Positions 4,424-47,128 of a stretch of 51,090 nucleotides of DNA are shown here, one piece after another (position 1 is the first letter of the stretch; each line of letters starts with the position of its first letter). The notes under the pieces are model-generated. The model saw only the letters and a list, made by a program, of their open reading frames with translations. It was not told the DNA's origin and searched no databases. The translations under genes and the position numbers were made by a program. The stretch is from an archaeon (GTDB lineage Archaea > Nanobdellota > Nanobdellia > Pacearchaeales > GW2011-AR1), in the NCBI GenBank assembly GCA_043817815.1, contig JBDRGM010000040.1:1-51090 (forward strand), given 5' to 3'.

Positions 4424-7057
4424 ATGAAAAATTTAAAAGGTTTAACAAAAAAAGAGGCTGAGAAAAGATTTAAAGAATCTGGACCTAATGAATTGAGAGA
4501 GATTGGAAAAATTTCCCCATTAAAAATTCTTTTAAGGCAGATTAAAAATAACTTTATTATTTATTTATTATTTGCGGCGATGCTTCTTTCTTTTTTTGTA
4601 GGCAAGTCTATTACTGCATATACAATTTTAGCAGTTATAATTCTTGTAGTGAATATTGGGTTTTTTCAAGAATATAAGGCTGAAAAAGCAATCTCTGCTT
4701 TGAAAAAAATGATTATGCCAATATCTATTGTTATAAGGGATGGTAAGGAAATAGAAATCCCCTCGAGGGAGATTGTCCCGGGAGACATATTAATTTTAAG
4801 AACAGGAGAAAAAATACCTGCTGATTGCCTTATTTTAGAAGCAAAAGAATTACGAATTAATGAATCTATATTAACGGGGGAATCTCAAGAAATAAAAAAA
4901 GTTGAAGCAAAAAGTGAGAGAAATTATGAAAAAGAACATCAATTATTTATGGGAACTTTAATTGTTAATGGAAGGTGCGTAGTTAAGGTGTTACATACAG
5001 GAATGAACACTGAATTTGGAAAAATAGCAGGAATGATTTCAACTGCTGAAAAAGAACTTCCATTGCAAAAGAAAGTTAATGGCATAGCTAAATATATGGT
5101 ATTTATTGGGCTTACTGTTTCTATTTTAACCGGAATTGTAATGTTAATAAGAAGTGTCCCTTTGTCCTCTGAGTTAATAATAGAAGTCTTAATTGTTGTG
5201 ATTGCATTATCTGTTTCTGCCTTTCCCGAAGGATTTCCAGTAGTTTTAATGACAACACTTGCTTCAGGGGCATATAGAATGGCTCAGAAAAATGCGATAG
5301 TTAACAGAATGTCTATTATTGAAACTCTTGGTGAAACTACTGTTATTTGTTCTGACAAAACAGGGACTATTACTGCTGGAGAAATGACTGTAAAAAAAAT
5401 ATTTTGTGATAATAAACTATTTGAAATTTCGGGAGCAGGTTATGAAGCAACAGGAGATTTTTTATATGATAATAAGAAGATTAATGTTCAAAAGAATAAT
5501 CCATTAAATCTTCTATTAAAAGCAGGAGTATTATGCAATGATTCAAAAATTGAAAGAAAAGGAACAGATAATGAATATTCTATGAGAGGAACTCCTACTG
5601 AAGCAGCATTGTTAATTGCATCTGCAAAAGCTGGAATTTTTAGAGATGACTTACATTTTTTAAGAGAAGGAGAAATCCCATTTAATTCTGGAAGAAAAAT
5701 TATGTCTGTAGCAATTAAAGAAAAAAATGGGAACTATATATATTCAAAAGGTGCTTTGGAGATTCTATTAAAAAAGTGCAAATTTATTCAAAGAGAGGAT
5801 GGAGTTTTCACACTTCTTGAAAAAGATAAAAAGAGAATAATGAAAATGAATCAAGAATTAACTTCAAAATCTCTTAGAACTCTTGCGATTGCTTATAAAA
5901 AAGTTAAATCCTTAGACAAAGACCATTTTGAACAAGAACTTATTTTTTTAGGATTAGCCGGGATGGAAGACCCTCCAAGAGAAGAAATAAAAGGAGCCAT
6001 AAAATTGTGTTATGTTGCAGGAATAAATGTAAAAATGATAACTGGAGACAATAAAGAAACTGCTATTGCAATTGCAAAACAAATTAATCTTAAAAAAGGA
6101 GGAATTTTAGATGGTGATGAATTAGATAAACTTAGTGACAAGGAATTATTTAAAATTGTAAAGCAAACCGTTGTTTTTGCAAGAGTTAGGCCCGAGCATA
6201 AATTAAGAATTGTTCAAGCACTAAAAGAACATGGAGAGATAGTAACAATGACTGGTGACGGTGTTAATGATGCTCCTGCATTAAAAGAAGCGCATATCGG
6301 GGTTGCTATGGGCATTGGAGGAACAGATGTTACAAGAGAGGTAGCAGACTTAACTTTGAAAGATGATAACTTTGCTACAATAATTTCTGCAGTTAGTGAA
6401 GGCAGAACAATCTTTAATAATATACAAAAATTTGTTACATATCAACTCTCATGTAATTATGCGGAACTTCTTATAATATTTTTAGGAATTCTTTTAGGGT
6501 TACCCTTGCCATTACTTGCATTGCAAATTTTGTTTATGAATTTAGTTACAGATAATCTTCCCGCAATCACCTTAGGATTTAACCAGTCTTCTCAAGATGT
6601 AATGAATAAAAAGCCAAGAAAAAAATCTCACATTTTAGATAAGCAACTCATTTTATTAATTTTAATTGGAGGTACAATTATGGGTTTGATTACACTTGGA
6701 GTGTTTTATTTTGTTCTTAATATTTTAAATCAAGAGCTTGTTGTAGCAAGAACAACCGCATTAGTAACTCTTATTTTCTTTGAAATAGCACATGCTTTCA
6801 ACTTTAGGTCTTTTAGAAAAAGAGTTTTGAATCGTTCTCTTTTTGTAAATAAATATCTGGTTTATGCTTCACTAATTTCTCTATTAGCAACATCCTTAAT
6901 TATTTATACTCCTCTAAGTAAGGTATTTGAAACTTCTCCAATTGGGCTAATTAATACTTTAATAGCTTTTGTTGCTTCGCTAACTATAATACTTGCTTTT
7001 GATATTATGAAAGCGAAAAAAGGAGACTTAAGTCAGGAAAAGAAACTTTTTAGTTAG
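4424..7057 (+). CDS. P-type cation-transporting ATPase (P2-type, Ca2+/cation pump-like)
   Basis: Motifs TGES, PEGFP, CSDKTGTIT (phospho-Asp), MITGDN, TGDGVNDAPALK. Ten predicted TM segments. Confidence 0.9.
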   Translation: MKNLKGLTKKEAEKRFKESGPNELREIGKISPLKILLRQIKNNFIIYLLFAAMLLSFFVGKSITAYTILAVIILVVNIGFFQEYKAEKAISALKKMIMPISIVIRDGKEIEIPSREIVPGDILILRTGEKIPADCLILEAKELRINESILTGESQEIKKVEAKSERNYEKEHQLFMGTLIVNGRCVVKVLHTGMNTEFGKIAGMISTAEKELPLQKKVNGIAKYMVFIGLTVSILTGIVMLIRSVPLSSELIIEVLIVVIALSVSAFPEGFPVVLMTTLASGAYRMAQKNAIVNRMSIIETLGETTVICSDKTGTITAGEMTVKKIFCDNKLFEISGAGYEATGDFLYDNKKINVQKNNPLNLLLKAGVLCNDSKIERKGTDNEYSMRGTPTEAALLIASAKAGIFRDDLHFLREGEIPFNSGRKIMSVAIKEKNGNYIYSKGALEILLKKCKFIQREDGVFTLLEKDKKRIMKMNQELTSKSLRTLAIAYKKVKSLDKDHFEQELIFLGLAGMEDPPREEIKGAIKLCYVAGINVKMITGDNKETAIAIAKQINLKKGGILDGDELDKLSDKELFKIVKQTVVFARVRPEHKLRIVQALKEHGEIVTMTGDGVNDAPALKEAHIGVAMGIGGTDVTREVADLTLKDDNFATIISAVSEGRTIFNNIQKFVTYQLSCNYAELLIIFLGILLGLPLPLLALQILFMNLVTDNLPAITLGFNQSSQDVMNKKPRKKSHILDKQLILLILIGGTIMGLITLGVFYFVLNILNQELVVARTTALVTLIFFEIAHAFNFRSFRKRVLNRSLFVNKYLVYASLISLLATSLIIYTPLSKVFETSPIGLINTLIAFVASLTIILAFDIMKAKKGDLSQEKKLFS

Positions 7058-8398: not shown

Positions 8399-9706
8399 AT
8401 GATAGATATTAAGTTAATTAGGGATAATCCTGAATTGGTAAAGGGGAATATTAAGAAAAAATTTCAGGATGAGAAGCTTGGATTTGTTGATGAAGTTAAG
8501 AGGTTAGATGAAGAGTGGAGAAAGTTGAGGTTTGACGAGGATAAATTGAGGAGTGATAGAAATAAGATTTCTAATAAGATTAATGGGCTGAAGAAAAATA
8601 ATAAGAAAGCGGATAAAGAGATTAAGGAAGCTAAAGAAATTCCTAAGAAGATTGCTAAGTCTCAGGAGGAGAGGAAGAAGCTTGAGATTAAGATTCGTGA
8701 GATGATGTATAAAATTCCGAATATAATTCATGAGTCTGTGCCTGCTGGAGAATCAGACAAGGATAATGTGGAAATAAAAAAATGGGGAAAGATTCCCAAA
8801 TTTAATTTTTCTGTTAAGAATCATGTTGAGATAATGGAGTCTTTGAACTTGGGGGATTTTGATGCTTCTGCAAGAGTTTCAGGAAAAGGGTTTTATTATT
8901 TGAAAAATGAGCTTGCTTTACTTAATCAGGCATTGATCAGATTTGGAATTGATTTTATGAAAAAGAGAGGATATGAATATATTGAGACGCCGTTGATGTT
9001 AAATGAAAAATCAGTTTACGCTTCAATGGATAAGAAGGCGATTGAAGAATCTGTTTATTCAATTGACGGTGAGGATTTGAATTTGATTGGAACTGCTGAG
9101 CAATCGTTGTTGGCGATGCATTCTGGCGACACGATTCCTGAATGGGAACTGCCGAAAAAATATTTTTCTTATTCAATGTGTTTTAGAAAAGAGATTGGGG
9201 CTCATGGAATAAATGAAAAAGGTTTGTGGAGAACGCATCAGTTTAATAAAGTTGAGCAGTTTGTTTTTTGCAAGCCAGAAGATTCTGAAAAAATTTATGA
9301 TGAACTATTAAAAAATTCAGAGGAAATTTTGAGAGAGTTAGAATTACCTTATCGTGTTTTGCAATTATGTACAGGAGATTTAGCTGACTGGAAATATCAG
9401 AGTGCTGATTTGGAAGTTTGGAGACCTACGACAAAAGAGTATGGTGAAGTTGTTTCTTTATCTAATTGTACTGATTATCAAGCAAGAAAATTAAATATAA
9501 GGTGTGTTGATAAAAAAGGGAATAGAAGAATTCTTCACACTTTGAATGACACTGCTTTAGCAACTTCTAGAATAATGGTTGCTATTTTGGAGAATAACCA
9601 GCAAAAAGATGGTTCTATAAAAATTCCTAAAGCTTTGTGGAAGTATACTGGATTTAAAGAAATAAAGATGAAGAAAAATGGTAAAAAAAAGGGGATTAAA
9701 AAATAA
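8399..9706 (+). CDS. serS: Seryl-tRNA synthetase
   Basis: N-terminal [14 protein letters not shown] coiled-coil arm. Class II motifs FRKEIGAHG...[12 protein letters not shown] and [17 protein letters not shown]. Lys-rich C-terminal tail. Confidence 0.92.
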
Positions 9707-9905
9707 CTTAGATAAATATCTTTTGTTAAGTTGGAGAAAGATTTGGATAATTGTTGTTGGGGGATTTGTTTCTATTTTGTTGCATAATGTGTTTTATGCA
9801 GTGTTTGGTTTTGAAGAGCCTGTGTTTTTTAGTATTGTTGTTTTTGTTCTTCCAATTTATTTTGTTGTTTCTGTGGGTTATAGTTTGATTAAGAGATTTA
9901 GATAA
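9678..9905 (+). CDS. Possible small two-helix membrane protein
   Basis: ORF overlapping the serS 3' end. Two hydrophobic helices. No homology recognised. Confidence 0.3.
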
Positions 9906-10095: not shown

Positions 10096-10167
10096 GCCTA
10101 CGTTGTCCAGTGGCTAAGACACATCCCTGTCGCGGATGAGATCCGGGTTCAATTCCCGGCGTGGGCG
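10096..10167 (+). tRNA. tRNA-Asp (GTC)
   Basis: Hand-folded cloverleaf: acceptor GCCTACG/CGTGGGC, D arm GTCC-AGTGGCTA-AGAC, anticodon arm CATCC-CTGTCGC-GGATG, variable AGAT, T arm CCGGG-TTCAATT-CCCGG, discriminator G73. CCA is not cleanly encoded (TCCA follows). Confidence 0.9.
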
Positions 10168-10168
10168 T
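10158..10168 (+). repeat. Repeat copy R1: GGCGTGGGCGT (3' end of tRNA-Asp plus 1 nt)
   Basis: Master copy of an 11-mer that recurs three times downstream in direct orientation. Confidence 0.85.
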
Positions 10169-10312
10169 CCAATCTCCGAAAACTTCTTTTATCCCCAAGG
10201 TTAATCTATATACTTTATCTCGACAACTTTTATAAATCATCTACATCAACGACAACAGCGATGGAAAATACAATAACCTCCAATTTTAAGCCAAACAAAA
10301 ACCGATTCTCAC

Positions 10313-10350
10313 GGATGTGCCAAGACGGGCAAGTCGTCGGCGTGGGCGTA
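10313..10350 (+). repeat. Decayed copy of the tRNA-Asp 3' half, ending in repeat R2 (GGCGTGGGCGTA at 10339-10350)
   Basis: GGATG (10313-10317) lies 26 nt before the exact 11-mer, against 24 nt in the tRNA. The trailer CTCCCGAAAC resembles the tRNA trailer CTCCGAAAAC. The T-arm part is replaced by a different hairpin. An extra GGGCGTA lies at 10364-10370. Confidence 0.7.
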
Positions 10351-10428
10351 AGACTCCCGAAACGGGCGTATTTTTCTTGAGGATTTGTAATTAGTAAGAT
10401 TTAAAAGGAATTTTCAAGATAGATTATT

Positions 10429-10668
10429 ATGATATACCCCTGGAATCATTTGAGTAAGAAATCTTTAAATATTTTTGAAGCTGAAAAAGGGAAATTAATG
10501 AAAGCTTTACGTTTTATTGATTTGGCTTTTGTTCCTTCTTCAGGAATAAGGGAAATGATTAAATTAAAGAAAGAAGGATCTTTGGATTTTTATAATGTAA
10601 TTGGGCATAGTCTTTATGAGGGTGTGAAATTAAGTGTCTATTATCATATGTATAATAATTTTTCTTAG
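10429..10668 (+). CDS. Hypothetical 79-aa protein (cargo of the second repeat-bounded unit)
   Basis: ORF only. No recognisable motif. Confidence 0.35.
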   Translation: MIYPWNHLSKKSLNIFEAEKGKLMKALRFIDLAFVPSSGIREMIKLKKEGSLDFYNVIGHSLYEGVKLSVYYHMYNNFS

Positions 10669-10686
10669 ATTCCCAAAATGCTACCT

Positions 10687-10697
10687 GTGTGGGCGTA
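10687..10697 (+). repeat. Repeat copy R3: GTGTGGGCGTA (one mismatch)
   Basis: Read directly. Direct orientation, followed by A and AT-rich DNA like R2 and R4. Confidence 0.65.
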
Positions 10698-10756
10698 AAA
10701 ATAGAAAGATTTATATATTATAGCCTTCTATAAGTAATTATAATAATTAATATAAA

Positions 10757-10966
10757 ATGTCTACAACAATACAAATTTCAAATAGTGTAAAAGAAGCATT
10801 AGATAATCTTAAATTGCTAGAAAGAGAAACTTACAATGAAGTTATTGAAAATATGTTGGAAGATAATTTGGATTTAAATGAAAAAACATTAAGCGAAATA
10901 AAAGAAAGAAAAAATAGCAAAGATTGGGTTTCTATAGAAGATGTTGAAAAGCATTTGGGACTATGA
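10757..10966 (+). CDS. Putative antitoxin (partner of the RelE/ParE toxin)
   Basis: 69-aa acidic protein immediately upstream of the RelE-like gene, overlapping it by 4 nt (ATGA). Confidence 0.6.
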   Translation: MSTTIQISNSVKEALDNLKLLERETYNEVIENMLEDNLDLNEKTLSEIKERKNSKDWVSIEDVEKHLGL

Positions 10967-11214
10967 TTTATAAAATTAAATTTGAGAAAAGAGCTTTTCA
11001 AGAGTTAGATAAATTAGATCAAATTATCTCTAGACGAATACTAAGGAATATAAAAGAATTGAAGGAAAGTTTTCATACTAAAGATGTTAAAAGATTAAAA
11101 GGTCAGAACATTTATAGATTAAGGATTGGAAATTATCGGGTTCTTTTTTATATAGAAAATGATTTGATTAGTATTCTTAAAGTAGGACATAGAAAAAATA
11201 TATATAAATATTAA
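10963..11214 (+). CDS. relE: RelE/ParE-family toxin
   Basis: 83 aa with the family signature ...YRLRIGNYRVLFYIENDLISILKVGHRKNIY. Confidence 0.85.
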   Translation: MIYKIKFEKRAFQELDKLDQIISRRILRNIKELKESFHTKDVKRLKGQNIYRLRIGNYRVLFYIENDLISILKVGHRKNIYKY

Positions 11215-11236
11215 CCCCCACTTTTTGGCAATATTT

Positions 11237-11267
11237 ATGTTAAGGAAACTAAGTTAAATCTTAACAT
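11237..11267 (+). other. Hairpin ATGTTAAG-N15-CTTAACAT between the toxin stop and repeat R4
   Basis: Perfect 8-bp inverted repeat read directly. Either a terminator or a recombination-site structure. Confidence 0.4.
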
Positions 11268-11275
11268 AAAGTCTT

Positions 11276-11287
11276 GGCGTGGGCGTA
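11276..11287 (+). repeat. Repeat copy R4: GGCGTGGGCGTA (exact)
   Basis: Read directly. Direct orientation. Confidence 0.8.
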
Positions 11288-16898: not shown

Positions 16899-17654
16899 TT
16901 AAACTTTTCTATAAAGTAGGGTATATTTATCATCGTACAAATAATATGAATTTGTGGGGACATAATTGTTTTTTAGTGGAACTTTTGAGTTTGATACGAC
17001 TTTGTAGTCCCAATTGTAGTGTTTGTATTTATCAGAATAGATATCTCTGTATATGAATTTTTTTTCTTCGTGAGCTCCAATGTAATGAGTTAGTGCTTGA
17101 CGAAATTCTCGGTCATTATAATCTTGGAAATAAAAAGTTGTTGTAAAGTAACCTCCTTTCACGTCATTATTTTTTACATAAACTACATAATTGTCGACGT
17201 CATTTCCAAAAACACCTTTTTGTTTTTCGTATTGAGCAATTGTTGTAAATTTTAAAGTTCTTTGGGTTTGTGTTTCAGATGTCTTGTCTATAATTTGGTA
17301 TGTTTTGTAATTTGGCTTATCTGTAATGTAAATATAATTTTTAGATATTGGATAATAATTTTTTTCTTTTAGATAAATGTTTTTTGTAGTTGTTGGATAA
17401 GAAATTGTTTTGTATGTTGGATTTTTTGTGTAATAAGAAGTTGGATATTTTGCTGTGACAGGAATTATTTGTTGTTGGGGTTTTGGATAATAATTTGTGT
17501 TGTAAGAATTTGTTACTGTTGTTGAAATTGATTTTTCTGATGTTGAAAATCCAGTGCTTGTGAATTGTGTTACTAAGAAAATTAAAGTGATTATTAAAAT
17601 GATTAATATTGTTCCTAGCAGAATTTCAACAACTCTTTTTTCAGTATTGTTCAT
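16899..17654 (-). CDS. Membrane-anchored Tyr/Thr/Asn/Lys-rich protein
   Basis: N-terminal TM helix, low-complexity Y/T/N/P linker and a C-terminal globular part. No family recognised. Confidence 0.5.
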   Translation of the reverse strand: MNNTEKRVVEILLGTILIILIITLIFLVTQFTSTGFSTSEKSISTTVTNSYNTNYYPKPQQQIIPVTAKYPTSYYTKNPTYKTISYPTTTKNIYLKEKNYYPISKNYIYITDKPNYKTYQIIDKTSETQTQRTLKFTTIAQYEKQKGVFGNDVDNYVVYVKNNDVKGGYFTTTFYFQDYNDREFRQALTHYIGAHEEKKFIYRDIYSDKYKHYNWDYKVVSNSKVPLKNNYVPTNSYYLYDDKYTLLYRKV

Positions 17655-17712
17655 GAATTAAATTATTGATGGGGATATTTAATTATTGTTGTTGTTGGAA
17701 GTATGTTTTTGA

Positions 17713-18009
17713 TTATTCTTTTATTGTGTTTGAGTTACATAGAAGTTCTAATCTTGCTGATCTTAGGGTGAGTTTTTGTTTTTGTAACAATCGATATAAT
17801 GGATCTTTTTTCATCTCTTCTCCTCTCATTATCCTAAGTGTTTTGCTAATCTCTTCAGATTGTTCATGTAAGTATGAAGGGATAGTCTGTGTTGTATTTA
17901 TCTCTTGAGGATATGCGGGAATTTTTTCTTTTGGAAGAATTAATCCAATGGTTATTAGCATTACTGTTCCTGCTAGAAAATACTTTCTAATATCTGGAAT
18001 TCTTTCCAT
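17713..18009 (-). CDS. Hypothetical small protein with N-terminal hydrophobic helix
   Basis: ORF only. Confidence 0.35.
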   Translation of the reverse strand: MERIPDIRKYFLAGTVMLITIGLILPKEKIPAYPQEINTTQTIPSYLHEQSEEISKTLRIMRGEEMKKDPLYRLLQKQKLTLRSARLELLCNSNTIKE

Positions 18010-18062
18010 ATTTTGTTTAACTGTTTTTGAGTTATAAGTATTTCTGTAATTATAAGAGTAGT

Positions 18063-18076
18063 AAATCTTAAAAACA
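18063..18076 (+). promoter_or_regulatory. Putative archaeal TATA/BRE element for tRNA-Tyr
   Basis: AAATCTTAAAAACA centred about 26 nt upstream of tRNA position 1. Confidence 0.3.
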
Positions 18077-18096
18077 GAGAGTTCTGTATTATGATA

Positions 18097-18238
18097 CCCT
18101 CCGTAGCTCAGTGGTTAGAGCGCCTGGCTGTAGATTATCTAAGGTGGAGATTCAATCATGATTACGATGAAGCCCCAAAAGCCAGCTCGGTTGCATGCAG
18201 TACCCGGGAGATCCCCAGTTCGAATCTGGGCGGGGGGA
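18097..18238 (+). tRNA. tRNA-Tyr (GTA), intron-containing
   Basis: Acceptor CCCTCCG/CGGGGGG with C1-G72 and A73 (archaeal Tyr identity set). D arm GCTC-AGTGGTTA-GAGC, anticodon stem CCTGG/CCGGG, loop CTGTAG...C, variable AGATC, T arm CCCAG-TTCGAAT-CTGGG. Mature length is 73 nt after removing 69 nt. Confidence 0.85.
18134..18202 (+). other. tRNA-Tyr intron (69 nt) at the canonical 37/38 position
   Basis: Anticodon-loop bases CTGT(A) pair with TGCAG (18196-18200), leaving a 3-nt TAC bulge beside the anticodon stem and AGA on the other strand. This resembles a bulge-helix-bulge. The exact splice sites are inferred. Confidence 0.6.
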
Positions 18239-18243
18239 TTGGT

Positions 18244-18260
18244 GGGAGCCTTGTGCTCCC
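18244..18260 (+). terminator. Hairpin GGGAGC-CTTGT-GCTCCC followed by TTTTGTG, just after tRNA-Tyr
   Basis: Perfect 6-bp stem read directly, with a T-run after it. Confidence 0.4.
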
Positions 18261-18342
18261 TTTTGTGTAGGTTTGAGAAATTCAAGAAGTTTTTCATGAG
18301 GAATTGAGAATAAAATAAATAATGACAAGTTGGTGAAGAGTT

Positions 18343-18352
18343 GGGGGATTGG
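18343..18352 (+). repeat. Direct repeat GGGGGATTGG, identical to the tRNA-Tyr 3' junction (18233-18242)
   Basis: Exact 10-mer read directly. G-rich in AT-rich DNA. Confidence 0.7.
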
Positions 18353-18457
18353 AATTTGTATTTACTGAATTGTATGAGGAGGTATAGTTGAAAGAAAACT
18401 TAATGCTGTTCCTTCGTGGAAATTTTCCGATTCTATAAAAAAAGAACATAGGATTAA

Positions 18458-19210
18458 ATGAGCAGTATTTTCCTTAAAATGATAAAAAAGAAATGTATTG
18501 TTTGCGAAAAAGAATTTGAAACTAAATATAGTTCTCAAAAGCATTGTAGTAGTAGGTGTAGAAATAAATTATATTATCAGAGAAAAGGAAAAAAAGTTCT
18601 TAGAAGATATTATGAAAAAAATAAAGACAAGATAAGAATTAGAAAGAGAGAATGGGGAAGAGAATATAGAAAAAAACCAGAAGTAAAATTAAAAAAAAGA
18701 TTACTAGCGAAAAAATATTCTGAAAAATATCCTGAAAAGATTAAAGCTCGTAAAGAGAAATATATGTCTTCTGAAAAAGGAAAGGAAACTATTTATAAAT
18801 ATAATAGGTCAAAATCAAGAAAGACAAGTTCAAAAAGATATGAACAATCTGATAAAGGAAAATCCTGTGTGAAAAAATATTTGAATTCAGGGAAAGGGAA
18901 AGCAACTAAAAAAAAATACTATCAAACTGAAACTTATGGGAAAAATAGAAGACATGGGGTTAGGAAATACAGAGCAAAAAAAAGAAAATTAATTCATAGT
19001 TTTACAAAAAAAGAATGGGAAAAATTATTAAAATTAACAAAGGGTATATGTCCTAGATGTAATAAATTTGTTGGAATTGATAAAATGGAGTTAGATCATA
19101 TTGTTCCAATATCAAAAGTAATTGAAGGATTTGTTTATAATATTAAGGATGTTCAACCTCTATGTATGCCCTGCAATCGTTCTAAAGGGGCTAGAATTAA
19201 AGCTCTATAA
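18458..19210 (+). CDS. HNH endonuclease with N-terminal Cys-rich zinc finger and Lys/Tyr-rich repeat region
   Basis: C-terminal ELDHIVPISK...QPLCMPCNRSKG (HNH). N-terminal CIVCEK...HCSSRCRN. Repeated (S/D)xKGK...KKY units in the middle. Alternative start at ATG 18479. Confidence 0.8.
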   Translation: MSSIFLKMIKKKCIVCEKEFETKYSSQKHCSSRCRNKLYYQRKGKKVLRRYYEKNKDKIRIRKREWGREYRKKPEVKLKKRLLAKKYSEKYPEKIKARKEKYMSSEKGKETIYKYNRSKSRKTSSKRYEQSDKGKSCVKKYLNSGKGKATKKKYYQTETYGKNRRHGVRKYRAKKRKLIHSFTKKEWEKLLKLTKGICPRCNKFVGIDKMELDHIVPISKVIEGFVYNIKDVQPLCMPCNRSKGARIKAL

Positions 19211-19260
19211 TTTTTTTCTTGATTCTGTGTTGTAAATAACACTTTTAATTGATTCTTGAA

Positions 19261-19268
19261 GGGGGATT
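19261..19268 (+). repeat. Third copy (GGGGGATT) of the tRNA-Tyr 3' junction repeat
   Basis: Exact 8-mer read directly, 50 nt after the HNH stop. Confidence 0.55.
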
Positions 19269-19273
19269 CTTAT

Positions 19274-20659
19274 TCAATATCCCTCTTCCCTTTTATCAGC
19301 TTTTTGTTCTGATAAGAAGAATGCTTTGTTAGATTCTGTTTCTTTGATTTCACCCTCTTTTTCGTAGATTGCTGTTGCTGATGGGAGTGCGAATTTTCCA
19401 AGGACTCCGACTTTGGAATAGATTATGTATGACAAGACTCGTGTTTCACCTGCTTCGAGTTTTTCAAAGTTCCATTCAATGCGTCGTGTTTTTTCATTTA
19501 TTCTTGAAGGTAATTCACTTCCGAATTTTTGATGGATTTTTACCAATAGAGGTAATCTATCTATTATGTTTATTCTTTCAATGTAGTTTTTAGCATTTAC
19601 AAAGATTGAAACTTTTAGTGCAAATTCTCCTCCTTTTGTTCTAACAAATGAAACCCTTTTTCTTAAGACTAAATCTGAACCAGAATATCTTTTTACTAAG
19701 ATGACTATTGAGATAATTAATGCGATTGCGAGTAGTGGGAAGAGCCAGTTTGTTCTGACTGTGATTTCAAGTGATTCGCCTGGGTTGATTGTTTTGCTCC
19801 AGGTGTAGTGTATTGTTGTTCCATCTCTTTGCACAATGTCTGGCTCTGGGCTAAAACTGGTGAATAATCTTGAAATAATATTTTTATTTATTATTGTTTC
19901 TGATTTTGTTAAGGTGTTTCCTTCATTTATTTTTTTTATTATCTGTGTGCTAATTACAAACCCATAATCCTTTTTTGTGGTTGTTAGTAAATCTTTTTCA
20001 CTGAATTCGATTGTTCCCTGTATTTCTGTTTGTTGATTTTCTGTATCTATCTTTGTGGTTAATGTATAAAATCCTGCCATCATTTTTTTAAAACTTTCTT
20101 GGTCAAGTTTTATATTAAATATTTTTTTTTCATAAGGAGCTAGGTCAAATGTTTCTTCTAAATTGAAAAATGTTGATGAGAATTTTACATTCAAATCTTT
20201 GAAGTCAAAGTTGACTTTGTTAAGAAGATAGATATTTATTGAATTTGAGTCTGGATTTATTTCTGCAGAGCCTGTTTCAAATGCATCTTTTAATTCTATT
20301 ATTTGAAATGTCAGTGATTTTTTTACTTCTGAATCGTCGTTAGCTCTTATGAAATAACTGAAAGTGTAAGCACCTCTTTGGTTTAACTTATTTATTGGAG
20401 AAATTTCTAGTTTGACATCCTTTGTCTGACCTTCTGCTATTGAGATTGTGCCAACAGGGAACATATTGAATCCTAGTAGATTATAAAATTTAAAACTACT
20501 TGATTGATCTAAGTTTTTTATTTTAAGATCAAATGAAGTTGTTTGGTCTAATCCAACAATCATGACTTCATTTGCGCTTTGTTTTTCAACTTTTAGATTA
20601 ATTGCTAGGATTGATGGTAAGAATAATAGTATTAATACTAATGTGAATAGTTTTTTCAT
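19274..20659 (-). CDS. Secreted/membrane protein with beta-rich ectodomain (COG1470-like?)
   Basis: Signal peptide MKKLFTLVLILLFLPSILA, an internal TM helix (LFPLLAIALIISIVILV) and a C-terminal domain with LEAGETRVLSYIIYSK. The family assignment is tentative. Confidence 0.55.
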   Translation of the reverse strand: MKKLFTLVLILLFLPSILAINLKVEKQSANEVMIVGLDQTTSFDLKIKNLDQSSSFKFYNLLGFNMFPVGTISIAEGQTKDVKLEISPINKLNQRGAYTFSYFIRANDDSEVKKSLTFQIIELKDAFETGSAEINPDSNSINIYLLNKVNFDFKDLNVKFSSTFFNLEETFDLAPYEKKIFNIKLDQESFKKMMAGFYTLTTKIDTENQQTEIQGTIEFSEKDLLTTTKKDYGFVISTQIIKKINEGNTLTKSETIINKNIISRLFTSFSPEPDIVQRDGTTIHYTWSKTINPGESLEITVRTNWLFPLLAIALIISIVILVKRYSGSDLVLRKRVSFVRTKGGEFALKVSIFVNAKNYIERINIIDRLPLLVKIHQKFGSELPSRINEKTRRIEWNFEKLEAGETRVLSYIIYSKVGVLGKFALPSATAIYEKEGEIKETESNKAFFLSEQKADKREEGY

Positions 20660-46891: not shown

Positions 46892-47128
46892 ATGGAATTT
46901 AATAACTTTGAGGAAGAAATTCTGGCAAATAAATGGGAAAGAAAAGTAGATAGCAAATTAAAAAAATCTTTAGAAAGATGTTGGGGGGATTGTTGTAAGA
47001 CAGATATTGATATAGGAGATGTTCCTGAAAATGTTAGAAATTATCTTTTACGAGAATTTAGTAAATGTTCATTAGATGCGAGATATCTTGGAGAGGGGAT
47101 TATGAGGGTTTCATATAACATCCATTAA
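46892..47128 (+). CDS. Hypothetical small Cys-containing protein
   Basis: ORF only. Confidence 0.3.
   Translation: MEFNNFEEEILANKWERKVDSKLKKSLERCWGDCCKTDIDIGDVPENVRNYLLREFSKCSLDARYLGEGIMRVSYNIH

Follow-up and report, generated by a model that had tools for sequence, protein, structure and literature searches.

The stretch of DNA analyzed here (hereafter the window) is a contig of 51,090 nucleotides (nt) from a metagenome-assembled genome (MAG) of an archaeon of the order Pacearchaeales, and the analysis concerns the 3' flank of its tRNA-Tyr gene. Behind this gene lie (i) a non-coding unit of about 100 nt; (ii) a unit that contains the gene of an HNH endonuclease; (iii) a 461-amino acid (aa) core gene on the opposite strand. 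Each of the two units ends with a copy of the last bases of the tRNA gene. The coordinates are collected in Table 1. The MAG consists of 725 kb in 45 contigs with 32% G+C, a completeness of 87% and a contamination of 7% (6.9%), and the window is its contig C40. Intron-rich tRNAs, an archaeal RNase P RNA and the tiny genome mark a DPANN-type archaeon. The GTDB family of the host holds more than 150 genera; 151 genomes of this family were scanned for the hairpin element described below and 100 for the HNH gene. Among the relatives, G126 is near-complete (92% complete, 5 contigs).

Table 1. Coordinates of the features discussed (positions in the window, unless a contig, C, or a locus of a relative, L, is given).
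Feature	Position	Strand	Remarks
TATA-like A/T-rich box AAATCTTAAAAAC	18063..18075	+	about 22-34 nt upstream of tRNA-Tyr; read from sequence
tRNA-Tyr(GUA)	18097..18238	+	ARAGORN with introns: 142-nt gene, 69-nt intron
tRNA-Tyr exon 1	18097-18133
tRNA-Tyr intron	18134-18202		69 nt, position 37/38
tRNA-Tyr exon 2	18203-18238
Repeat copy 1, GGGGGATTGG	18233..18242	+	5 terminal acceptor bases, A73, then 4 nt of trailer
Perfect hairpin GGGAGC-CTTGT-GCTCCC, then TTTT	18244..18264	+	directly after tRNA-Tyr; arms 18244-18249 and 18255-18260
AT-decayed relic attributed to the hairpin-element family	18265..18342	+	module a ..TGAGAA..TTCAAGAAG.., right end ..TGGTGAAGAGTT; stem no longer intact
Repeat copy 2, GGGGGATTGG, exact	18343..18352	+	closes unit 1
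TATA-like box TATAAAAAAA	18434..18443	+	15 nt (end) and about 20 nt (centre) before the HNH ATG
HNH endonuclease gene, 250 aa	18458..19210	+	Pfam HNH, PHROG HNH families
Repeat copy 3, GGGGGATT	19261..19268	+	closes the HNH unit; 5 nt from the stop codon of the 461-aa gene
461-aa core gene, secreted/membrane, no Pfam match	19274..20659	-	fixed neighbour of tRNA-Tyr across the order; synteny anchor
Sister array at tRNA-Asp	10096..11286	+	tRNA end CGGCGTGGGCGT 10157-10168; repeats 10338-10349, 10689-10696 (degenerate), 11276-11286
RNase P RNA locus	C6:6202-6618		long hairpin of the family between two 3'-end copies, opposite orientation
Element copies in the same genome	C1:20941-21035, C45:291-385, C38:9652-9724, C4:23576-23733(-), C2:1895-2079, C1:19583-19680
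Element copies in relatives	L090-L108

The exons of the tRNA-Tyr gene, folded by hand, give a normal tRNA-Tyr(GUA) with the acceptor stem CCCTCCG/CGGGGGG. The anticodon GTA is found at 18130-18132 and the discriminator A73 at 18238, and CCA is not encoded. The gene (18097) is missed by ARAGORN in default mode and by Rfam; the intron mode of ARAGORN labels it, wrongly, as Asn, and its orthologs in 14 relatives are called Tyr(gta). The exons are 87-100% identical to those of these 14 relatives, the 3' conservation begins at about nt 99-106 of the gene, and in all 14 the tRNA adjoins the same 461-aa neighbour gene. A parse with two introns was dropped for the single 69-nt intron, on the basis of the intron mode of ARAGORN and of the 3' boundary conserved in relatives. 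A box similar to the TATA-like one (aaattttaaaaat) is present at equal distance upstream of tRNA-Tyr in G002 and in other relatives.

The earlier note on this DNA had claimed that the decamer at the 3' junction of tRNA-Tyr recurs downstream, and this is verified: GGGGGATTGG is found again exactly at 18343 and, as GGGGGATT, at 19261, and the copies do bracket a non-coding unit and the HNH gene. In the window GGGGGATTGG occurs at 18233 and 18343 only, and the whole 725-kb genome has 5 occurrences on both strands, whereas GGGGGATT occurs 31 times genome-wide. Further copies of GGGGGATT in the window, all on the + strand and unrelated to tRNA, are located at 8851 (within a 435-aa gene, 8399-9706), at 9759 (within a 75-aa open reading frame (ORF), 9678-9905) and at 46984, which looks coding. 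A match of at least 10 nt to the 20-nt junction within 1.5 kb downstream is obtained for 1.6% of random genome windows (P 0.016). A match of at least 8 nt is expected 0.008 times in the 56 positions between the HNH stop codon and the next gene. Taken alone, the tRNA-Tyr repeats are suggestive, i.e., their improbability is modest and not decisive. They become solid because of the genome-wide pattern and of the bracketing of an HNH ortholog, both described below.

The earlier note had also seen the 3' end of tRNA-Asp reiterated around a toxin-antitoxin module, had proposed a shared process directed by tRNA 3' ends and had suggested a survey of every tRNA of the genome. For each of the 34 tRNAs the 20-nt junction was matched to the sequence downstream, and the longest exact match was compared with that of the same segment in random genome windows. 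The last 10-21 nt are reiterated 50-190 nt downstream, on the same strand, for 7 of them (per-tRNA null P 3e-4 to 0.016). The lengths of the repeats are 17 nt for Thr(TGT), 12 for Asp, 15 for each of two Gly(TCC) loci, 21 for Lys, 14 for Ala and 10 for Tyr. The four copies at tRNA-Asp partition a 170-nt non-coding unit, a 79-aa ORF (ORF79) and a RelB/RelE-like pair. The gene of RNase P RNA shows the same feature: its 3' end GGCCTATTCCTGACTTACA (C6:6501-6519, 19 nt) is repeated 91 nt downstream at 6592-6612, before a T6 run. Thus stable-RNA genes other than those of tRNAs are also targeted. In the present genome, in G126 and at the RNase P RNA gene, nearly all the copies that close a unit are exact.

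Among the relatives, reiteration is found for 8 of 30 tRNAs in G126 (tRNA-Tyr and tRNA-Asp included), 2 of 14 in G020 and 0 of 16 in G002. When the tRNA-Tyr sites of different genera are compared, the site is empty (G002 and others), holds unit 1 only (G126) or holds other cargo (G023). In G126, tRNA-Tyr is followed by a hairpin then TT, by an element and by a 13-nt copy, with no HNH gene after it. In G023, a 1.58-kb cassette with a kinase-like 391-aa ORF and an 84-aa ORF lies between repeats of about 24 nt. The cargo of G020 is a small membrane ORF. The tRNA-Asp of G126 (L128, C3:10835-11250) has the same 3' end as that of the window, CGGCGTGGGCG, and a different cassette, i.e., a Cys-rich ORF of about 75 aa between two copies. 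Taken together, the 7 of 34 tRNAs here, the 8 of 30 in G126, tRNA-Tyr of G023 and the contig of the HNH ortholog (L033) support a shared process directed by tRNA 3' ends.

Many of these units contain a hairpin element. Its left part, module a (GGGATGAGAACCC-RA-GGGTTCGACGAG), is common to the tRNA-Gly and tRNA-Lys units and forms the hairpin GAACCC/GGGTTC. In most units it is followed by a long stem flanked by CGAG boxes, by the right end GGGAGC/CGAGC-TT, by the reiterated end of the local tRNA and by an oligo-T run. The family was defined by module a (GGATGAGAACC..GGTTCGACGAG), the covarying CGAG-flanked stem, this right end and the local copy of the tRNA 3' end. A BLAST search with one 81-nt copy gives matches in 17 of the 151 family genomes, with up to four matches per genome. 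They sit behind tRNA-His, Phe, Gly, Leu, Met and Gln, each with its own tRNA end repeated, and L095, L094 and L104 contain tandem units. In an alignment of 13 copies the stem is variable, with compensatory double changes at 8 of 9 pairs. A profile search finds more copies, partly decayed, beside other tRNAs of the present genome. No Rfam family was found for the spacers or for 17900-19400.

The distal copy follows its own tRNA: it shares the lineage-specific substitutions of that tRNA between the orthologous C1 and C45 loci as well as across the window, L033 and G126. Between the C1 and C45 loci the arms of the element are about 97% conserved, whereas the tRNA intron and the flanks have diverged. 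The segments upstream of distal copies resemble degenerate 3' halves of tRNAs (anticodon-stem 3' strand, variable loop and T arm), and module a was compared with the tRNA-Asp sequence GGATGAGATCCGGGTTCAATTCC for this likeness. The long hairpin of the family, module b, is also found without a tRNA (C42:8966-9026(-), L093, L098, L101), just upstream of the promoter-like motif AAAAACCGTAGGTTTTTAAAATG; a motif similar to the latter precedes tRNA-Gly on C1. Manual inspection of C38 and C1 gave no bulge-helix-bulge motif that would make an intron of copy 1 plus the element, and minimum-free-energy folds were ambiguous.

In unit 1 of tRNA-Tyr, the GGGAGC/GCTCCC hairpin reported earlier is exact, with TTTT after it. 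By analogy with similar hairpins found straight after tRNAs on C4 and C2 of the same genome and after tRNA-Gln of G017, as after tRNA-Tyr of G126, this hairpin is most likely a terminator-like trailer that belongs to the tRNA itself. In the remainder of the unit (18265-18352) only order, position and short motifs persist (TGAGAA..TTCAAGAAG.., ..GGTGAAGAGTT then the repeat), and the stem is broken. Alignment of the segment to the intact family member that precedes the HNH ortholog of L033 is weak, and the layout of the segment is that of the element behind tRNA-Tyr of G126; these two tRNA-Tyr copies are clear members of the family. Judged by its position, order and short motifs, the segment is probably homologous to the hairpin family, and unit 1 would be an old copy of the element that has decayed here. 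The sequence before copy 2 (GTTGGTGAAGAG), formerly taken for an echo of the tRNA trailer, is reinterpreted as the decayed right end of the family (consensus ..TGGGAGCGAGC..).

The HNH protein matches Pfam HNH (PF01844) at residues 198-246 (E 2.4e-7, 31.2 bits for a cutoff of 21.4) and phage HNH families of PHROG (best 5e-11). It has an N-terminal zinc-ribbon-like motif (CxxC...HCxxxC), a middle part made of Lys/Arg-rich repeats and the HNH domain at the C-terminus (CPRC...DH...CMPCN). With a TATA-like box so close to the ATG, the gene probably has its own promoter and would be near-leaderless. Its closest relative, P0002, is encoded by a 990-nt metagenome contig (L033), with 72% aa identity; it is the sole close one among 5.8 billion proteins, and metagenome and GTDB scans gave nothing nearer than about 30%. 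The nt similarity reaches 81% from codon 12 to the stop codon (18491-19210) and the flanks are weakly alignable. The motif CPRC...LDHIVP...CMPCNRSKG is kept in this ortholog. For this pair, dN/dS (ratio of nonsynonymous to synonymous substitution rates) amounts to 0.29 over the whole gene and to 0.15 for the HNH domain (dS 0.57); the HNH gene is under purifying selection.

The ORF of L033 is bracketed by GGTGGAGGGATTTT (88-101) and GGTGGAGGAATTTT (912-925), i.e., a 14-nt repeat with 13 of 14 matches. This is the sole G-rich repeat of the contig; over its first 12 nt it does not differ from the 3' end of tRNA-Tyr of G001. Upstream of the first repeat copy stands an intact element of the family: GTTCGACGAG, next the stem CTTTTAGAGAAG/CTTCTCTGGGAG, then CGAGCATT. 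The 461-aa neighbour gene is not encoded in the downstream flank of L033. The HNH cassette is a second unit; it occurs in two lineages, and copies of the tRNA-Tyr end bracket it in both.

The reading that we favour, and that we consider rather likely, is that units accrete in the 3' flank of tRNA-Tyr, which holds two of them, each closed by a copy of the tRNA 3' end, and that the HNH gene is cargo. The repeats would be junction duplications produced by a recombination or insertion process acting in trans on the 3' boundaries of stable-RNA genes, and the copied segment would comprise the 3' strand of the acceptor with the discriminator and some bases of the trailer. Unit 1 (18243-18352) would consist of the terminator-like hairpin, the decayed two-hairpin element and the closing copy of the tRNA 3' end. 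Unit 2 (18353-19268) would be a one-gene cassette, i.e., the HNH gene with its own TATA box, with the shorter repeat copy at its end. The HNH gene would be kept functional by selection and would not be the builder of the arrays. The process is most likely a site-specific integration of the attachment-site (att) type, in which the incoming DNA would carry or regenerate the tRNA 3' end and leave the tRNA intact; a target duplication by staggered cuts appears less likely. Neither boundary of the repeats is constant: one ranges between the T loop and the acceptor, the other between +1 and +11. For this reason the identity of an att core fits better than a fixed target duplication. Sequences resembling tRNA upstream of the distal copies, as in tRNA-targeting elements, also fit att sites.

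tRNA genes are classic landing pads of mobile DNA and an integrase normally accompanies the landing. Streptococcal cis-mobilizable elements (CIMEs) lack an integrase and are bordered by att sites at loci of the tRNA type, where successive integration gives arrays in which att occurs three or more times; CIMEs are several kb long and derive from known integrative and conjugative elements. Unlike the case of CIMEs, neither a parent element nor an integrase is identifiable here. It is well documented that archaeal integration leaves partial copies of tRNAs, e.g., in the islands of Thermococcaceae (PMC9897764), and tandem arrays at ssrA are described for the ssrA-specific islands of Dehalococcoides (PMC3146451). 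The tRNA-Tyr locus resembles such tRNA- and tmRNA-targeting elements in that a stable-RNA gene receives the insertion at its 3' part and stays intact, a partial copy lies at the far border and the cargo is variable. Both borders carry direct repeats of the target tRNA's 3' part, and the intact tRNA stands at one end. It differs from the islands in that (i) the units extend from about 50 nt to 1.6 kb, with no integrase or integration module; (ii) the repeats are of 10-25 nt, against 44 bp in the Pyrococcus island (PMC9897764); (iii) a conserved non-coding hairpin element usually comes first; (iv) RNase P RNA is also a target; (v) the distal copy stays identical to the tRNA in diverged lineages. 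We rate the tRNA-Tyr locus as a variant of tRNA-site integration that is part of a family-wide pattern, and no description of this pattern was found in the literature searched.

Several points weigh against this integration. No recombinase ORF is present in 18239-19268 or in the tRNA-Asp array, and no integrase was found in or beside any unit; with a MAG completeness of 87%, the gene of such an enzyme may have escaped notice. A pattern scan of IMG/VR gave no virus carrying the element, only two chance matches in GC-rich phage genes. A single family sits at many tRNAs, each time with that tRNA's own end, non-functional trailer bases included. The second copy is identical to the first in diverged lineages, which a decaying att scar does not predict; this local identity points to repeated re-copying, to a target-duplicating insertion or to a function. 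The conservation of the arms between C1 and C45 suggests that the element itself is under selection. The tRNA-Tyr repeats measure only 10 and 8 nt, and the family profile gives no nhmmer match for the unit 1 copy.

As for candidate enzymes, the tyrosine recombinases found in the genome amount to four matches to the Phage_integrase domain, all at contig ends, and the two longest look XerC/D-like by their motifs. The first ~150 nt of the two XerC/D-like genes (C21:1-400, C38:1-400) are identical and each gene opens a contig. A third C-terminal domain of a tyrosine recombinase is found at the start of C44 (C44:1-400), preceded by stop codons and by the GC-rich hairpin GCAGCAAGCTGCGGGGTAAGCCCC; this gene may be interrupted or truncated. 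Cas1 (PF01867) was not found in the present genome nor in G125, G126 and G062. It is present in 10 of the 151 family genomes, 3 of which are element-positive. Neither reverse transcriptase (RT) nor TnpB was found in the present genome or in the element-rich G125, G126 and G062; IS200-type TnpA was not searched for. No significant terminal inverted repeats were found at the unit ends. Private inverted repeats at the ends of the HNH, ORF79 and toxin-antitoxin cassettes do not exceed those of shuffled controls (P 0.35-0.79).

Another reading, offered tentatively as it is clearly less probable than tRNA-site integration, is that of an undescribed DPANN system. It would stack hairpin elements and cassettes past the discriminator of tRNAs and RNase P RNA, regenerating exactly the last 10-25 nt, without Cas1, RT, TnpB or a dedicated integrase. 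The worker might be a housekeeping Xer-type recombinase or an enzyme that reads the T-arm. The block of tRNA-Tyr and HNH would then be a single repeat-insert-repeat array, comparable to those of casposons or of CRISPR. The arrays can also be compared with integrons and with CALIN arrays (clusters of attC sites lacking integrases). Common features are single-gene cassettes bearing promoters and set in rows, a reiterated sequence resembling a recombination site, a hairpin conserved in structure and variable in sequence, and Xer-type recombinases as the sole tyrosine recombinases present. Unlike integrons, however, what is reiterated here is the local tRNA 3' end instead of attC or dif, and the array starts at a tRNA gene. 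IntI was not found in or beside the units, though no search was aimed at it. A folded site of the attC type was not found at the ends of the HNH, ORF79 and toxin-antitoxin cassettes, whose boundaries are copies of tRNA ends.

The order of the protein genes around the locus, and their orientation, are the same as in relatives, whereas the block that begins with the tRNA promoter and ends with copy 3 differs. In 14 of 14 relatives (loci L009-L032) tRNA-Tyr is just downstream of the 461-aa gene and on the same strand. Here the block 18063-19268 (tRNA promoter, tRNA, unit 1, HNH gene and copy 3) is inverted with respect to these relatives. The TATA-like box lies on the tRNA side of the block, and copy 3 is also its right edge. 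The breakpoints show no inverted repeats and no repeat copies in inverse orientation, only AT-rich noise. In the case of an undescribed system, the inversion would be a by-product of the same recombination that builds the arrays.

An insertion that duplicates its target is unlikely, although it would explain the local identity of the copies. An integrase or nuclease would make staggered cuts, one in the T loop or T stem and the other at +1..+11, an arbitrary insert would be joined and gap repair would duplicate the target, with the tRNA acting as the 'leader' of a CRISPR- or casposon-like array. The copies always match the local gene end, lineage-specific trailer bases included; one element family occurs at many tRNAs, each with its own end; the cargo is arbitrary, and module b is inverted at RNase P RNA. 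A precedent exists in the casposons of Aciduliprofundum and Methanosarcina. Their 15-bp duplication overlaps the 3' end of tRNA-Pro, the T-loop region upstream is required, and in tandem arrays the elements are separated by the duplicated segment (PMC5137440). The units described here are thus like casposons in their target, in the overlap of the duplication with the tRNA end and in their tandem arrays, and casposons also carry HNH nuclease genes. On the other hand, none of the enzymes Cas1, RT and TnpB was found in the four genomes searched, PolB and terminal inverted repeats are lacking, and the duplication is mostly inside the tRNA and of variable length, not 15 +/- 2. With a range of 10-25 nt and both boundaries shifting, the repeats vary far beyond known target duplications. 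Moreover, in several loci a native-looking trailer hairpin separates copy 1 from the element, so that copy 1 does not abut the insert.

It is still less probable that the HNH enzyme is the agent, as had been proposed earlier for the nuclease that makes the insertion site. It would cut the 3' junction of tRNA-Tyr or its copies, and the gene would be copied into the break; in an extended form of this proposal, the repeats made elsewhere would also be its work. The domain is intact and constrained, and the gene has traits of homing endonuclease genes, i.e., a sporadic distribution with virus-like contexts included, presence or absence at a conserved locus, and strong nt similarity confined to the ORF, with the sole close ortholog behind a copy of the tRNA-Tyr end. 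T4 segB, a free-standing homing endonuclease gene located between tRNA genes and targeting the tRNA region, is a precedent (PMC2988022). Like segB, the HNH gene is a small self-promoted nuclease gene of a homing-endonuclease family, sporadic and set in an intergenic slot beside a conserved tRNA. Unlike it, SegB is a GIY-YIG enzyme; homing by homologous repair or gene conversion makes no direct repeats, and the repeats occur here at many loci free of nuclease. In G021 (L025, C6, ~9115-9588) an unrelated HNH_3 gene (157 aa) stands 45 nt from the tRNA-Tyr 3' end, convergent to it. This coincidence can be cited in favour of homing, but the gene has no flanking repeat.

The distribution of the HNH gene speaks against its role as an agent. 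The gene is single in the genome, with no paralog, and is absent from every other repeat-bearing locus; the same layout of repeats is found without it at 6 or more other tRNAs and at RNase P RNA here, and at 8 tRNAs of G126. It is absent from the tRNA-Tyr locus of the 14 relatives and of G126, and the latter keeps unit 1 and the repeat. Among the 100 family genomes there are only six weak matches, none at the tRNA-Tyr locus; nine of these genomes are element-positive, of which G014 and G017 have a weak match and seven have none. The contexts of the distant homologs are unrelated to this one (one is a polysaccharide operon, another a virus-like contig that carries an intein and two HNH genes), and 21 of 22 homolog loci have no tRNA nearby. 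With a single HNH copy against at least 8 other RNA-gene ends with repeats, a role of the HNH enzyme as the agent is not supported; a low probability is kept for a variant in which it homes to the tRNA-Tyr site for its own sake. The HNH gene is better regarded as cargo, and may be a free-standing selfish gene of the homing type that rode in or settled.

For unit 1 only, a slimmer chance is given to a host RNA module, i.e., the element and the second copy would not be mobile and would serve the tRNA transcription unit (processing, termination, alternative pairing, or a stable small RNA with a tRNA-like end), the HNH gene being merely downstream. The strong covariation of the stem, the tandem G-A motif that flanks it, the conserved arms, the second copy that varies with its own tRNA and the oligo-T run, which follows the distal copy and not the proximal one, are consistent with such a module. 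However, the element is patchy (17 of 151 genomes and a minority of tRNAs), many copies are decayed, that of tRNA-Tyr included, module b is inverted at RNase P RNA, units are duplicated in tandem, Rfam gives no match and the same repeats bound protein-coding cassettes. Finally, chance, i.e., coincidental G-rich matches of 10 and 8 nt around an ordinary horizontally acquired HNH gene, is very improbable: the repeats are short, the octamer is frequent, the region between tRNA-Tyr and its neighbours is variable in all relatives and the family profile misses unit 1, but the joint placement is improbable, an independent repeat (13/14) occupies the same two positions around the L033 ortholog, and the same architecture is found at tRNA-Tyr of G126 and G023 and at tRNA-Asp of the window.

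About a quarter of the tRNA genes, here and in G126, carry miniature units without integrase, bounded by copies of the tRNA end that look fresh; other sampled relatives have fewer or none. If the process is active, it would be a cheap way for ultra-small genomes to gain or swap accessory genes (toxin-antitoxin, nucleases, kinases) while sparing essential single-copy tRNAs. The arrays are also a natural parallel to the way in which target duplications of casposons are thought to have seeded CRISPR repeats. With regard to annotation, the pattern accounts for tRNA-end fragments and odd trailers in DPANN MAGs, and a neighbouring nuclease should not be read as the cause of the repeats.

Two minor observations concern the MAG and the other flank of the locus. 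The MAG contains diverged homologous pairs, namely the tRNA-Gly(TCC) loci C1:20780-21330 and C45:130-680 and the two XerC/D-like genes of C21 and C38; this suggests that two related strains or species are present in one bin (contamination 6.9%). Between a metalloprotease gene and tRNA-Tyr, at 16899-18009, lie two minus-strand ORFs (251 aa and 98 aa) with no Pfam match; only the 251-aa ORF has a homolog, in one relative (G021) and at the equivalent position. This flank corresponds to the variable cargo region of relatives, which extends from 0.6 to 3.7 kb.

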